A stretch of 28,171 nt of DNA from a virus (taxonomy: Duplodnaviria; Caudoviricetes), in IMG/VR virus record IMGVR_UViG_3300032305_001698, positions 1-28,171 of that record; one strand, given 5' to 3'. This document shows, in pieces, positions 6,578 to 16,078 of the stretch. Position 1 is the first letter of the stretch. Every line of letters begins with the position of its first letter. The translations under genes were made by a program, and so were the position numbers. The notes below the pieces were generated by a model, which made no database searches, was not told the origin of the DNA, and was given only the letters and a program-made list of their open reading frames with translations.

Positions 6578-7067
6578 CCACTCCTTATCCTGATAACTAC
6601 GTCATAACGTATATACACATACGGCAAAAACCATATTTTTCTTGGGGGGAACAAGGAGAGGGGCACTCCCTCAGGCCCCCGCGCGACCCATCGGCGGGCC
6701 GCAGATTTCAGGCTTGGCGGCTAGGGCGAGGCTAGGCCGGTGCTGGTGTCAGAGTCCAGCGCCCCGTCCCATGCCCCATACCCGATTCTGGGAGGGCTAC
6801 AGGGGGGTGATGCCTGGCTGCGCTACCACCCTACCGGACCCCTTGGCCCATCGGCCTGTAGCGCGCTTAGAATGGCCCACGCGCGGGGATGTAAGGTGGA
6901 TGTTATGTCCGGCTTAGCCCTAGCGGTAGCAGTATGACGTAATAGGACATAGATACTAACCTAACGAGGGGGATGATATAACGTAACAACGTCGAGGGCG
7001 ATGATACGTTATAACGTATATACGTATATACGTATAAGACGAAGAAAGGATCGCGCGCGCACGCGAA

Positions 7068-7082: not shown

Positions 7083-7136
7083 CAGACACTAGATCAAAGA
7101 TTAACAATCTTTAATAAAATAACGCTTGTCTGCATC

Positions 7137-7161
7137 CGTCACAAGCGACACATGCGTCACA
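7137..7161 (+). promoter_or_regulatory. Triple direct-repeat operator (9-bp period)
   Basis: CGTCACA-AG-CGACACA-TG-CGTCACA about 30 bp upstream of the first rightward gene; matching array at 12065-12089. Confidence 0.65.
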
Positions 7162-7190
7162 GGCAATCAAGCCTGGATGGGAACACGACA

Positions 7191-7364
7191 ATGTATTTTT
7201 ACATCACTCACACCGACGCTGCTGGCGAGATGCACCAGCTTCGCGGCGCCTATGATGCCGAAAGCGCCGCCGAGGCTCTTGCCGCATTCTTCGCTGAATC
7301 CGGCGCGGTTGACGACGGCCGTTATGCCGCACACCGCGTTATCACTGACGATGACGTGATTTAA
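7191..7364 (+). CDS. Small acidic hypothetical early protein (57 aa)
   Basis: ATG 7191 after GGGAACACGACA; MYFYITHTDAAG...DDDVI. Confidence 0.7.
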   Translation: MYFYITHTDAAGEMHQLRGAYDAESAAEALAAFFAESGAVDDGRYAAHRVITDDDVI

Positions 7365-7381
7365 GGGGGGGGGCTGATACC

Positions 7382-7666
7382 ATGACCGAAACACGCACAA
7401 TCGTTCTGGCGAACACTGGCGGCTATGTCACCATGGGCCGCGCCACGCAGCCTACACCCGAGGAAATTGCGCGGGTTGAAACAGCGCTGCGCCAGCAGGG
7501 TGTGACGGCCTGGCTTTGCACCATGGTGGGCAGTCCATATAGCCGCGCCAAGAAAAACCGCCCCAAATTTACCAATGTCAAGCTGCTTTGCGGCGACGGT
7601 GATTTTGATGCTGCCGTAGCGGCATTTCATGCGGAAGAGCATTGGCGCGGTTACGCCGGAGCCTGA
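7382..7666 (+). CDS. Hypothetical early protein (94 aa)
   Basis: ORF track; preceded by a G9 run at SD position. Confidence 0.7.
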   Translation: MTETRTIVLANTGGYVTMGRATQPTPEEIARVETALRQQGVTAWLCTMVGSPYSRAKKNRPKFTNVKLLCGDGDFDAAVAAFHAEEHWRGYAGA

Positions 7667-7759
7667 CACTACGGCAGGGGCTTCACGGCCCCGCCACATA
7701 AACCGCTTTACGGGGCGGCTTGTGCGGCGAATTGCCGATAACGAAAGGGAAAGCGCACA

Positions 7760-8434
7760 ATGCTTACACACCTAGTGCTTGAAAGCCGTAACGGCAAAAC
7801 AGGCCCGATACCTGTTTCCACATCCAGCAAGGCAACCTGCCCGGCTTCCTGCCCGCTGTATGCCAAGGGCTGCTATGCCGGGGGCGGACCGCTTGCCATG
7901 CATTGGCGCGCCGTGACCAATGGTGAGCGTGGCGACACATGGCCCGTGTTTGTCAGCAAGATTGCGGCATTGCCCGATGGTCAATTGTGGCGACACAATC
8001 AAGCGGGCGATTTGCCTGGCGCTGATAGCAAGATTGACCGCAAGGCTTTGTTGGCGCTTGCCAAGGCCAATGAAGGCAAGCGGGGCTTCACCTATACCCA
8101 CAAGCCTATGACTAAGGCCAATGTTACCACGATTACCATGGTCAATAGCCTAGGCTTTACCGTCAACCTGTCAGCAAACACTCTTGCCGATGCCGATAGG
8201 CTTGCCGATACAAAAGCCGGTCCGGTGGTGGTGGTGCTAGATGCCGCTGAGGGAGTTCGCCATACTGTCACCACGCCGGCCGGGCGTACGGTTGAAACCT
8301 GCCCGGCGACATACCGCGATGATGTGTCATGCGCGACTTGCCAACTATGCCAGCGTGTAGACCGTAAAGTCATTGTGGGCTTTCCCGCCCATGGCGTGAG
8401 TAAGAAGGCCGCCGCGGCAATTGCGCGGGGCTGA
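7760..8434 (+). CDS. Cys-rich phage protein (DUF7227/GP88-like), probable metal or Fe-S binding (224 aa)
   Basis: N-terminal TCPASCPLYAKGCYA, RHNQAGD, YTH, NLSA and C-terminal CPAT...CATCQLC...FPAHG motifs; family name from recall only. Confidence 0.7.
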   Translation: MLTHLVLESRNGKTGPIPVSTSSKATCPASCPLYAKGCYAGGGPLAMHWRAVTNGERGDTWPVFVSKIAALPDGQLWRHNQAGDLPGADSKIDRKALLALAKANEGKRGFTYTHKPMTKANVTTITMVNSLGFTVNLSANTLADADRLADTKAGPVVVVLDAAEGVRHTVTTPAGRTVETCPATYRDDVSCATCQLCQRVDRKVIVGFPAHGVSKKAAAAIARG

Positions 8435-8515
8435 CAATCCGGCAGGGCGGCATCGCTTGTGCGGTGTGCGCTCTTCCCGATTGCCATGCTGGCATCGATA
8501 ACAGGGGATAGAACA

Positions 8516-8755
8516 ATGACACATATTGAAGCCCGCGCGGAATTGCGCGAATTGATTCAAGCCCGCGCATCATGGGAGCGCGCCAGGCATTTGTGGGCGC
8601 ATGGCCTTGTTGGAGATGCGGCATTCAATCGCTTCGAACGGCTTTGGGCGTGGTCTACTGCCACTGAGCACCCGTTAACGCGACATGCCAGCCTAGACCG
8701 CTGGATAAGCCGCCGGGACCGTATCCGCAACGCATTGCGCGCCATTGGCGCATAA
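8516..8755 (+). CDS. Hypothetical Arg/Trp-rich protein (79 aa)
   Basis: ATG 8516 after AGGGGATAGAACA. Confidence 0.7.
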   Translation: MTHIEARAELRELIQARASWERARHLWAHGLVGDAAFNRFERLWAWSTATEHPLTRHASLDRWISRRDRIRNALRAIGA

Positions 8756-8767
8756 GGGGGCAGCACA

Positions 8768-8851
8768 ATGACCATACTCAAAACCCTGGCCGAGGGGCTG
8801 GCGTTTCTCGTGCTGCTGGCGGGAACCTGTTTCTTGGTGGTGGTGCTATGA
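8768..8851 (+). CDS. 27-aa single-pass membrane peptide
   Basis: Not in ORF track. AAGGGGG SD; MTILKTLAEGLAFLVLLAGTCFLVVVL; ATGA overlap with the next gene. Confidence 0.7.
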   Translation: MTILKTLAEGLAFLVLLAGTCFLVVVL

Positions 8852-9147
8852 GAAACGCCAGCAAACCGCAGCTTCACGCTAAAGATGCGCGCAATAGACC
8901 GGACATTATGGCGGCGGTGCGCGCCGGCTATCATGATGCTCTGGCCGGTCTAGGCTACCGCGCGGAGTATGAGACAATGAAAGCATACCAGCAGCGCAAC
9001 TATACAAGCGGGCGGCTTATGGCGATCGAATTGCTCACCAAGCGCACCAAGCCCCCCGCCTGGCCGGATAGCGTGAAGCTCCCGCGCCGGATCGAGGCTA
9101 TCGCGCAAGATGTGGCGCAGTCTTTTGTGCGGCAACCGCCCGCGTGA
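8848..9147 (+). CDS. Hypothetical protein (99 aa)
   Basis: ORF track; translationally coupled to the upstream peptide. Confidence 0.7.
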   Translation: MRNASKPQLHAKDARNRPDIMAAVRAGYHDALAGLGYRAEYETMKAYQQRNYTSGRLMAIELLTKRTKPPAWPDSVKLPRRIEAIAQDVAQSFVRQPPA

Positions 9148-11458: not shown

Positions 11459-11564
11459 TGTCCCAATCCTTCATCACTGCGCGCCAACTGGCAGCAACAA
11501 CAACCAGCCCGGCTATCAGCGCGCCAATGCACCCGGCCACGAAAGCCCCTGCTATTGTCCACAT
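11451..11564 (-). CDS. 37-aa single-pass membrane peptide
   Basis: Not in ORF track. TGATG coupling; MWTIAGAFVAGCIGALIAGLVVVAASWRAVMKDWDNE. Confidence 0.7.
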   Translation of the reverse strand: MWTIAGAFVAGCIGALIAGLVVVAASWRAVMKDWDNE

Positions 11565-12046
11565 CAAAACATCTCCTCCGCGCTGCTTTCAACGATGGGC
11601 TGCACGCGGCGGGCTAGGTCCTCGCGATTGCCTACGGCCAAGTCTTTCGGCGCGAAAAGCCCGCTCCAGCCATTTTCTATGCTCTGCCGAATGATAGAAG
11701 CCGGGCAGCCGCCGCCAGCGTCCCAATAAGTGACCAGCCGCGCGATAGACAGTTTCTTGGCGTGCAGGGTCCATGCTTTTCCGCTCTTAGCCGTGCGGTA
11801 GGCGTCCCATTCCAGCCAGGCATCCATCGGGATAAAGGAAGGTATCTCAAGCGTGGCAACCGGCTTGGAAGCCTTCACGGCGGCCCTACGGGGCTGCACC
11901 GCGCTGCCAAAAACCTCGCCCTTCAAGCCTTCCTCAAGCAGTTTCCGGCCCACGCGGCTACGGGAATGCTCTGTGCGGCGGCATATCGCATCGATAGCCT
12001 CGGCCACTTCCACCGGCACGCGGATGGGGATTGTTATACTAGCCAT
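11564..12046 (-). CDS. Ribbon-helix-helix domain fused to phage replication-initiator-like C-terminal domain (160 aa)
   Basis: N-terminal TIPIRVPVEVAEAIDAICRRTEHSRSRVGRKLLEEGL is CopG/Arc-like; C-terminal WLEWDAYR...IIRQSIENGWSGLF is typical of phage replisome-organiser C-termini; GAAAGGA SD. Confidence 0.7.
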   Translation of the reverse strand: MASITIPIRVPVEVAEAIDAICRRTEHSRSRVGRKLLEEGLKGEVFGSAVQPRRAAVKASKPVATLEIPSFIPMDAWLEWDAYRTAKSGKAWTLHAKKLSIARLVTYWDAGGGCPASIIRQSIENGWSGLFAPKDLAVGNREDLARRVQPIVESSAEEMF

Positions 12047-12064
12047 TGTGTTGTTCCTTTCGGT

Positions 12065-12089
12065 TGTGTCGCATGCGACGTTTGTGACG
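12065..12089 (-). promoter_or_regulatory. Triple direct-repeat operator (9-bp period)
   Basis: Minus strand CGTCACA-AA-CGTCGCA-TG-CGACACA just upstream of the RHH gene RBS. Confidence 0.65.
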
Positions 12090-12108
12090 TAGGGTATTTT
12101 CGTGGGGC

Positions 12109-12137
12109 TTGCAAGGGGGGTTTGCGTAGGCCATTAT
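12109..12137 (+). promoter_or_regulatory. sigma70-type promoter for candidate sRNA
   Basis: TTGCAA-N17-CATTAT. Confidence 0.5.
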
Positions 12138-12143
12138 CTGGGT

Positions 12144-12221
12144 GCGGGTTCTCTCCTCCGCGGTCGTGTTCCTTTCCCAAGCTATCCAACTGCCCCGGCC
12201 TAACCGCTGGGGCTTTTTTTT
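12144..12221 (+). ncRNA. Candidate small regulatory RNA (~78 nt)
   Basis: Bounded by a promoter and an intrinsic terminator; no plausible ORF; carries anti-SD tracts CTCTCCTCC and GTCGTGTTCCTTTCCC. 5' end is estimated. Confidence 0.5.
12192..12221 (+). terminator. Rho-independent terminator
   Basis: GCCCCGGC-CTAACC-GCTGGGGC followed by T8. Confidence 0.85.
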
Positions 12222-12241: not shown

Positions 12242-12269
12242 TTGACCGCGCTAAAACCGCGCTTAAAGT
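12242..12269 (+). promoter_or_regulatory. sigma70-type promoter of the recombination operon
   Basis: TTGACC-N16-TAAAGT; an inverted operator box TGTGTCG lies at 12271-12277. Confidence 0.6.
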
Positions 12270-12304
12270 GTGTGTCGCGCCATAACAGGAAAGGGACGCG
12301 CACA

Positions 12305-12894: not shown

Positions 12895-13799
12895 GCGGCT
12901 TTAGCGCAGACGAGCGCCGCAGCGCCTGGTGGAGCACCGATAGCCGCCGCGCCGTGTCTGGCAAGGCTTTCGAGGTGGTGGCCGAGAAGGTGGGAAAGGC
13001 TGAGCGGCCTGACCTGAGCGAGGTGGAGGTGGTGCAGATGGGTCTCCGCATGGAAGCCACTATCGCCGCCTTCGCCAGCGAGGAACTAGGCGAGTTGAAG
13101 GCTCTGGGCGACGCTGTGGCTACCCACGCCAAGCACCCATGGATGAAGTCTCACGGCGACTATATGGCTGCCGATAACAGCTTCCTGGTGGAGTGCAAGA
13201 ACTACAACGCGCTGCATATCCACCAATACAGCGAACCTGGCGAGCCTGTCCGGGTGCCGAATGCCGATTGGGCGCAGTGCTGCCATGAGGCGGCGTGTTT
13301 CGGCGTTAACACCGTCTATCTGTGCATCCTGTTTGGCGGCCAACGGTTTCGGACCTTCCGGCTGGATTTCAGCGAGGACGAAAAGGACGGGCTGATCCGT
13401 CAAATGGCAAAGCTGTGGGCGATGGCGCAGACGGGCCAGATGCCTGACCCTGAGACGGTGGCGCAGTGCAAGACGGCCTACCCTGTTAGCACTGAGGGCA
13501 TTGCCACGGCCTCTCTGGAGCTTGAGCAGGCGGCTAAGCGCCTTGCCGGCATCAAGGCGTCCATCAAAGCCTTTGAAGCCGAGGAAGACCGCTTACAGAC
13601 GGCTATACAGCGTGCCATGGGCGATAACGCCGAGATGCACACGTTGGACGGCAGAACACTGGTGACATGGAAAAGCGCGAAGGCTTCCAAGCGTTTTAGT
13701 GCCGACCTTTTCCGGTCCGCATACCCAGACATCTACGAACAATTCGTGGTGGAACAGCCGGGCAGCCGGCGATTTCTTTTGAAGGAGAAAGCAGAATGA
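12891..13799 (+). CDS. YqaJ-like (lambda exonuclease family) recombination nuclease (302 aa)
   Basis: ATG 12891; MGLRME, HPWMKSHGD, LVECK and AQCCHE motifs; coiled-coil C-terminus ending GSRRFLLK. Confidence 0.85.
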   Translation: MSGFSADERRSAWWSTDSRRAVSGKAFEVVAEKVGKAERPDLSEVEVVQMGLRMEATIAAFASEELGELKALGDAVATHAKHPWMKSHGDYMAADNSFLVECKNYNALHIHQYSEPGEPVRVPNADWAQCCHEAACFGVNTVYLCILFGGQRFRTFRLDFSEDEKDGLIRQMAKLWAMAQTGQMPDPETVAQCKTAYPVSTEGIATASLELEQAAKRLAGIKASIKAFEAEEDRLQTAIQRAMGDNAEMHTLDGRTLVTWKSAKASKRFSADLFRSAYPDIYEQFVVEQPGSRRFLLKEKAE

Positions 13800-14047
13800 C
13801 TACCGATTGGAAAGACTGGCGCGTGGCCGACACCGACATCAACAAGCGCGTGAAGACCGTGCTCATGGCTAACGATCCGGCCATGACCTGGCAGGATGTG
13901 CTCGGCATGAGCGAGCGTGACCTGAGCGCGCTGCCGCATATGGGCAAGACCAACCGCGCCCACTTGCTGGACATCCTGCGCGATGGCGTGGCCGGCAAGC
14001 TGGTGAAGTGCAACCGCACATTAGGGGAGGTGATCGGCGATGAGTAA
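13796..14047 (+). CDS. Stand-alone RNA polymerase alpha-CTD-like (HhH) protein (83 aa)
   Basis: INKRVKTVL...TWQDVLGMSERDLSALPHMGKTNRAHLLDIL follows the alpha-CTD pattern (LxxRxxNxL...DL...ExELLxxPNxGKKS..EI). Confidence 0.65.
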   Translation: MTTDWKDWRVADTDINKRVKTVLMANDPAMTWQDVLGMSERDLSALPHMGKTNRAHLLDILRDGVAGKLVKCNRTLGEVIGDE

Positions 14048-15405: not shown

Positions 15406-15713
15406 GCGAACCAGCAAAAGACGAAGCCGACCTGATAAAGTTTATTGGGCAGATAATCTTTTACTTTGGAGGGGAGGAAGAGTTCTTTATGGAAAACGCC
15501 GAATCCGCCCTCGACATTATCCGAGAGCAGGGGTGGTCTGTGGTTCCGCAGAGGGAACTGGACGCCCTCCACGCCGAGAATGCGCTGCTGCGGGAGGCTA
15601 TAGAAGATAGCGCAATCATGATTGAAGCTTGTCACGACGCGCCGACCAATCCCGACAGTTTGCCTCAAATGTTACTGCACCACATGCGAGCAGCCTTGGA
15701 AAAGAAGCCGTGA
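15402..15713 (+). CDS. Hypothetical acidic protein (103 aa)
   Basis: ATGA-coupled; AAGGA SD. Confidence 0.7.
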   Translation: MSEPAKDEADLIKFIGQIIFYFGGEEEFFMENAESALDIIREQGWSVVPQRELDALHAENALLREAIEDSAIMIEACHDAPTNPDSLPQMLLHHMRAALEKKP

Positions 15714-16078
15714 AAGCCAAGCGCGTGCGGTGGTCGCCGGAAATCGTCGGCAGCTTGCATACGGGCGGCATTCCATGGACCGCCGAGGAAAACAAACGCC
15801 TGTTTGACATGCTGCAAGAAGAATGCAGCCTGCGAGAAATCTCAACCAAACTCAACCGCAGCTATGTCAGCGTCAAAGACAAGGTAAACCGCCTTTCCCG
15901 ATCCGGCGAAAACGCCAGGCAACCCTCAACCCAAAAACGAGTGATAGCCCGCGACATAAAGGAAAAGGCCGGTAAAGCCAGCGTGAAGTGCCTAAAGTGC
16001 CTGAATTTGTTTGACAGCTATGACCCACGACGCAACCGCATCTGTGCACGGTGCAAAGGAAACGAGGATTGGAAATGA
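15710..16078 (+). CDS. GcrA/Myb-like HTH protein with C-terminal Zn finger (122 aa)
   Basis: GTGA overlap start; WTAEENKRLFDML...LNRSYVSVKDKVNRL and CLKC...RICARC. Confidence 0.7.
   Translation: MKAKRVRWSPEIVGSLHTGGIPWTAEENKRLFDMLQEECSLREISTKLNRSYVSVKDKVNRLSRSGENARQPSTQKRVIARDIKEKAGKASVKCLKCLNLFDSYDPRRNRICARCKGNEDWK

Follow-up and report, generated by a model that had tools for sequence, protein, structure and literature searches.

In the accessible parts of the sources cited here, two kinds of RNA come closest to the locus described below. AbcR1 and AbcR2 (alpha-r15) of the Rhizobiales are independent transcripts with two anti-Shine-Dalgarno (anti-SD) tracts, the first located in a 5' hairpin loop and the other in the single strand that follows, and they silence host transporter mRNAs (PMC8844928, PMC5461406). 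The c4 RNA of the phages P1 and P7 is described with three stem-loops, in which the targeting loops a' and b' are closed by the P1 stem. RNase P releases it from a longer precursor, and it is part of temperate-phage immunity and antirepressor control (PMC5320573). Trans-acting sRNAs of phages include VpdS (VP882), PreS (lambda) and 24B_1, and the cis-antisense type is represented by sar and OOP; the accessible text of the review which treats them describes no RNA that matches a translation-initiation motif common to several phage operons (PMC12197685). Phage sRNAs with known trans targets in their own genome are few.

For the present study a stretch of 28,171 nt (the window), a 28.2-kb virus record from a small tailed phage, was analyzed. 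It encodes a portal protein, a terminase and a GH19-type endolysin and has a variable block made up of small early genes. A leftward module begins with the gene of an RHH and O-like protein, and gene 12305 leads a rightward recE/recT/ssb/rusA operon. The space from the RHH start (12046) to gene 12305 contains a unit which overlaps no called gene. Judging from its signals it would be transcribed, and it is very probably a real sRNA gene (Table 1).

The unit is built like AbcR1/2 and placed like P1 c4, and it is a member of neither. Like AbcR, the window RNA and the alleles B, C and D (see below) carry an anti-SD tract in a loop plus one in a single strand, and the RNA is predicted to be an independent transcript that blocks translation at several ribosome-binding sites (RBSs). 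However, allele A lacks the loop tract and has only the second one. Of the exact AbcR motifs M1 (CUCCCA) and M2 (GUUCCC) the window has neither in exact form, and allele B contains CUCCCA, but in the single strand instead of the loop. In contrast to AbcR, the RNA is phage-encoded, shorter, without the middle hairpin and without a match in Rfam; its predicted targets are phage genes, and the seed is swapped between close relatives. With c4 it shares the length of about 77-78 nt, the allelic seeds among related phages and a location shortly before the predicted target gene, in its orientation; the RBS of this gene is predicted to be occluded in trans. Unlike c4, it folds as 5' hairpin, single strand and terminator and not as three stems, and it has its own promoter and terminator, an anatomy that points to a primary transcript rather than an RNase P product; again there is no Rfam match, and the gene downstream gives no antirepressor hit. 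We take the P4 CI RNA to belong with c4 as a comparison system for the phage unit. VpdS, PreS and 24B_1 are similar in being phage-encoded small RNAs which tune phage or host translation, PreS differing in that it acts on a host gene. The RNAs sar and OOP come from the strand opposite to their targets, which they overlap with full complementarity, whereas the unit described here overlaps none.

Table 1. Coordinates of the sRNA unit, its predicted targets and neighboring elements in the window
Feature	Position	Strand	Remark
RBS region of first early cassette gene 7191	7180..7189	+	strongest pairing in the window genome; not kept by relatives
Block of small early genes	7191..9147		variable
RHH and O-like replication-initiation protein	11564..12046	-	candidate repressor
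RBS of the RHH gene	12052..12061	-	secondary predicted target, 10 exact pairs
Operator-like repeats after the RHH -10	to about 12064	-	recur in the early promoter
-10 of the leftward RHH promoter	12086..12091	-	predicted; starts TA, 17 nt from the common -35 in 29/29 loci
Palindromic -35 hexamer TTGCAA	12109..12114	both	predicted for rightward sRNA promoter and leftward RHH promoter
-10 of the sRNA promoter, CATTAT	12132..12137	+	17 nt from the -35; five variants among loci
Predicted sRNA, ~78 nt	12144..12221	+	start inferred from the -10 position
5' hairpin, CU-rich loop (first anti-SD tract)	12144..12161	+	predicted fold
Single-stranded seed (second anti-SD tract), UCCCA at its end	12163..12179	+	unpaired in the centroid
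Intrinsic terminator, 8-bp stem and U8	12192..12221	+	terminator scanner's first hit: 12192-12213 and T8
Second rightward promoter, recombination operon	12242..12269	+	listed by scanner; both hexamers conserved, spacer variable
RBS region of gene 12305	12288..12300	+	best-supported predicted target, 13 contiguous pairs with seed
Gene 12305, 73 aa	12305..12526	+	first in recE/recT/ssb/rusA operon

Searches with RHH, RecE and the promoter pattern gave 29 distinct copies of the unit, the window and 28 related phage loci. Together they amount to three to four independent alleles. The incomplete loci L070 and L019/L090 were dropped before counting, and duplicates of one sequence were counted once. 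Allele A (14 loci) has a small GNRA hairpin followed by the seed, allele B (10 loci) a CU-loop hairpin followed by a different seed, and allele C (4 loci including the window) a B-like hairpin together with an A-like seed; allele D is represented by the single locus L026. In all alleles a 5' hairpin is combined with a CU-rich stretch that is exposed, a linker rich in A and a terminator with a U tail, a layout which we take to be the anatomy of a base-pairing sRNA.

The predicted sRNA has a length of 68-82 nt across the 29 loci and, in the window, a minimum free energy (MFE) of -24.5 kcal/mol (z -2.3), mostly owed to the terminator. About 78 nt without an open reading frame followed by a strong terminator had already been noticed in a first-pass annotation of this DNA, and both were borne out. 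The further anti-SD tract reported there is also present: it is the CU tract at 12151-12159, located in the loop and the 3' arm of the 5' hairpin. This hairpin is the MFE hairpin in 15/15 loci of the alleles B, C and D, with G-C as the innermost pair in 11, A-U in 3 and G-U in 1 of them; allele A shows a different hairpin of 4 bp with a GNRA loop in its place. The seed is the best-conserved stretch within alleles (A: 0.95 vs. 0.59-0.82 in the spacers; B: 0.86 vs. 0.65-0.82), and its UCCCA end is kept in 28/29 loci, L071 having UCCCG. In the terminator stem 97.5% of 120 cells are paired, with one pair changed on both sides in 5/15 sequences (compensatory), and three loci (L030, L066 and L076) have rebuilt the terminator with other stems.

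The proposed promoter TTGCAA-N17-CATTAT is present with the expected letters and spacing, and its geometry is kept in the relatives. The -35 hexamer is invariant in 24/24 aligned loci and positions 2-3 of the -10 are AT in 29/29, the sequence of the spacer being variable. Consensus is matched at 8/12 positions, which is under the cut-off of the promoter scanner, hence the promoter is not in its list. Because -10-like hexamers stand 17 nt off on both sides in all 29 loci, the divergent promoters of the sRNA and of the RHH gene are predicted to use one and the same palindromic -35. The second rightward promoter lies 3' of the sRNA terminator, so that gene 12305 can do without the first one.

None of 4227 Rfam families matches in the window at E<=1. 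With the model R1 only the known unit was found in 27 sources (best others E 0.13), a search that is insensitive because the true allele A members L030 and L076 score only E 0.17-0.44. Among the INPHARED cultured phages, matches to the sRNA unit are only of terminator length, and RecE matches show <=44% identity. No such unit was found before the recombination genes in 12 distant RecE loci, nor among the distant RecT loci listed (of 23) except for a tract in L158. In this unrelated phage, some 2.8-2.9 kb upstream of the recT match, a long CU-rich, anti-SD-like tract immediately precedes a strong terminator and may be another candidate sRNA of similar style. A literature search for this RNA yielded no paper. 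The searched part of the supplement of Fremin et al. (2023; PMC10690425) contains no match, and the RNA may be among the 10,006 candidates of that study.

The initial proposal of an sRNA against the RBSs of the phage's own operon-leading genes was built on complementarity, all of which could be found again: 12163-12172 is the exact complement of the site just before the 7191 start, 12167-12176 that of the RHH-gene RBS, and 7-nt matches are present at the RBSs of the genes 7760 and 12305. Exact 10-mer complements somewhere in the window are not unusual (5 overlapping ones observed vs. 2.8 expected in 1000 shuffles), and no exact complement elsewhere in the window exceeds 11 nt, the length of the longest one. 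For the occurrence of a 10-mer in two of 39 translation-initiation regions (TIRs), 5000 full shuffles gave P=0.0006, and shuffles that left the anti-SD heptamer in place gave P=0.016. Pairing energies were calculated with a simplified IntaRNA-like script (hybridization plus accessibility). Over the 41 TIRs of the window, 7191 ranks first, 12305 second and RHH eighth. Pairing correlates with SD strength (r about 0.57), and part of any seed pairing is generic anti-SD pairing. The conserved unit is well supported and its predicted pairing with the phage's own TIRs is supported, but the ranking of the targets changes, with 12305 as the conserved partner. A perfect long target for allele A was also considered and rejected: a 20-nt pattern gave 7 matches over viral contigs, all of them the sRNA loci themselves. 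Per locus, exact matches outside the unit have at most 12 nt and lie mostly away from gene starts.

The RBS of gene 12305 is the best-supported predicted target and the one that holds up across the relatives. Instead of the 7-nt match noted before, the window seed and this RBS can form a helix of 13 contiguous pairs, 2 of them G-U. In 18/18 loci of the alleles A, C and D there are 10-13 contiguous pairs, allele D reaching the site with 12 pairs from its hairpin loop, whose sequence is a different one; the 10 loci of allele B have only 6-7, some of them more across a bulge (L071, which lacks the 12305 start, was left out of these counts). At most 5/100 shuffles pair as well in 15/18 A/C/D loci and 6/10 B loci, and 4/10 B loci fail to beat the shuffles. 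For all four alleles, 12305 is first or second among the 41 window TIRs. When six RNAs were tested against 128 annotated TIRs of a Rhodovastum (Acetobacteraceae) phage-plasmid, the own 12305 TIR was equaled by 0, 0, 1, 0, 7 and 0 of them; the window site surpasses all 128. When 165 script-called, SD-led TIRs from unrelated loci were used, 1 gave 13 pairs and 7 gave at least 11 with the window RNA, and 7 gave at least 12 with the allele D RNA. After regression on SD strength 12305 stays an outlier (residual z -2.8 for the window, -3.6 for L018). The site is nearly invariant, therefore reciprocal covariation of seed and target is absent there. The invariant CA of UCCCA is unpaired in the 12305 helix.

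Gene 7191 shows the strongest pairing (-22.8 kcal/mol) and is also an outlier after SD-strength regression (z -3.4). However, the relatives carry other cassettes in place of this gene and its leader, and the 10-mer match, the best one of the first-pass annotation, is private to the window genome. Seed-target covariation for the leaders of the first early genes was rejected as well, since own leaders have no advantage over foreign ones in pairing (P=0.43, 11 loci). The cassette TIRs share one motif. With the RNAs of allele A and the window, 8/11 of them are beaten by at most 2/128 background TIRs; with the B and D RNAs on their own cassette TIRs, 7-42/128 background TIRs are as good. The early region as a whole (window, L001, L005, L068, L079 and others) appears as a set of exchangeable gene cassettes with a common leader motif, and a 305-aa protein encoded there in some relatives may be ArdC-like.

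For the RHH gene the exact complement is present, and its RBS is a secondary predicted target. The energies covary with the allele (mean in cis -11.6 vs. -9.7 +/- 0.5 kcal/mol when permuted, 0/20000), but only one-sidedly, the A/C RNAs reaching -10.1 to -11.5 on B-type TIRs and the B RNAs -9.6, and the RHH TIR is no outlier after SD-strength correction, i.e., the match is no stronger than SD strength predicts. The RBS changes with the allele, including L026 and L032, where the A-type leader of L032 is the best B-binder of its type. Both sites, RHH RBS and seed, are 90 nt apart and co-inherited, and the trees show only 4-6 label changes. The RHH_1 hit of the protein (E 0.0014, 19 bits) is below the cut-off of 20.5 and recurs in 11/11 members; in addition, the protein matches phrog_678 (E 5e-11). 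Operator-like repeats over the RHH start (12064-12114) recur in the early promoter (7126-7161), and they share more 6-mers with the own early promoter than with others (5.5 vs. 3.6, P=0.008, 11 loci). The repeats differ with the RHH N-terminal type, of which three exist among the relatives. This suggests that RHH represses its own and the early promoter and that the N-terminal types are repressor specificity groups.

Starting from the conserved unit and its complementarity, we lean towards a model in which the ~78-nt RNA pairs by its CU-rich seed with the 12305 RBS and, depending on the allele, also with RHH and the early cassettes, and blocks translation. The rightward promoter would make the sRNA, whose single-stranded seed would cover in the cell the RBS at the head of the recombination operon; RHH and the early cassette leaders would be allele-dependent side targets. 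Read-through transcripts may fold the same seed:12305 helix in cis. The sRNA and RHH promoters would be mutually exclusive through their common -35, and RHH build-up would therefore favor sRNA synthesis: once bound to the operator-like repeats, RHH would close its own promoter as well as the early one and leave that of the sRNA free. By this coupling the sRNA could act as the post-transcriptional arm of an early-gene shut-down, a device for timing or dosage more than an established immunity switch. The RNA-based immunity switch suggested at first finds no support in its immunity part: no match to an integrase, CI or antirepressor was obtained among the ORFs scanned, 41 in the window and 8 additional ones in G001, and a plasmid-like state may occur. 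This agrees with the earlier remark that neither CI nor integrase is visible, but RHH with its operator-like repeats is a candidate protein repressor. G001 is the closest complete relative (34.5 kb, with terminal repeats), and its extra content compared to the window consists mainly of virion genes. If the model is true, it would show how a small phage without a classical repressor can time its early program by translation. The uncatalogued family offers a compact, testable case, with four natural seed alleles, a 13-pair target and a bidirectional promoter tied to the RHH protein.

It seems unlikely, though it deserves weight, that the RNA is real and has host mRNAs or competing elements as its main targets, i.e., that it is an AbcR-like, broad anti-SD regulator which redirects host translation and pairs with phage TIRs as a side effect. 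Such host-directed action would explain better the constancy of UCCCA across differing alleles, where the sole variant still pairs with U, although UGGGA is offered by only 4/11 first-early leaders, and also the weak phage targets of allele B. Against it, the own 12305 TIR stands above nearly all background TIRs, even SD-corrected, and phages with 86-94% identity in RecE have strongly differing seeds, which is a poor fit with a fixed host target. If host mRNAs are the targets, the unit would be a phage counterpart of AbcR-type regulators. We give still less credit to a far-reaching version of our model, in which one sRNA, turned on via the -35 in common with the RHH promoter, would silence the leading genes of all three non-structural operons (early cassettes, replication, recombination) via the common TIR motif, with the seed alleles as specificity groups of an RNA-based exclusion or carrier-state switch that works without integrase or CI.

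A cis-only insulator is doubtful to a somewhat higher degree. The terminator would stop transcription from the bidirectional promoter, the seed would fold on the 12305 RBS in read-through RNA, and protein would come only from the second promoter. The predicted read-through fold indeed pairs the 12305 SD with the 5' part at a mean probability of at least 0.8 in 17/28 loci (1.0 in the window), but 11/28 loci fold otherwise, the pairing with distant cassette TIRs is left unexplained, and the dedicated conserved -10, the 5' hairpin and the U8 terminator predict an abundant free RNA. Folding in cis and action as a trans sRNA are compatible and not exclusive. Least probable is that the tract represents an RBS of the minus strand, decayed or cryptic, which arose as a copy of a phage TIR and has no RNA function, the rightward transcript being promoter noise: the seed DNA is a direct repeat of the RHH RBS 115 nt away, the minus strand of allele A offers an SD and ATG with a frame of 33 or 41 codons in 10/12 A loci called, and capture of an inverted TIR is a plausible origin of the alleles A and C, but no ATG is present there in the window, B and D loci have no such frame, the frames vary from 10 to 52 codons, extend across both promoters and show numerous residue changes, the 5' hairpin is formed by the very bases that match the "first codons", the seed is more and not less conserved than its flanks, and all four alleles keep exposed CU-rich tracts in the same promoter-terminator frame.

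The preferred target, gene 12305, encodes a protein found only in this phage group. Pfam and PHROG gave no match to it, and in the ESM Atlas the best score was 0.81, with no family. Its structure model (pLDDT 67) has four strands plus a helix, and PUR repeats make up its four best structural matches (Z 5.8-6.3, rmsd 2.6-3.4, 57-63 aligned); the PC4 homologue of T5 follows with Z 5.3. A PUR/PC4-like fold would suit a recombination operon, but the scores are within the range of common folds, and we treat it as a lead only. Between recE and recT lies an 83-aa ORF (13796-14047) which by eye seems to resemble the C-terminal domain of the RNA polymerase alpha subunit and has no match in PHROG and Pfam. 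By eye, too, the ORF 15710-16078 (HTH plus CxxC) would resemble GcrA-type regulators; only PHROG D5-like and weak HTH matches were obtained, and no phage match to the GcrA-like reading.

A close relative of the phage was not found in the GTDB genomes. Endolysin matches of ~40% on plasmids include both Rhodovastum and enterobacteria, therefore an alphaproteobacterial host is only a guess. The sequence NZ_OW485606.1 (L119, L120), named plasmid RHOApe, has genes for a terminase, a portal protein and a tail sheath and resembles a phage-plasmid. AT-rich palindromic TATACG repeats at 7006-7066, upstream of the early promoter, are present in the relatives too and are a possible origin or packaging-end signal. 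On the minus strand, between the portal gene and ORF 994-1629, two strong SDs (1821-1833 and 1742-1748) stand before very short frames. Both are kept in G001 and possibly belong to two small unannotated genes of the virion region.
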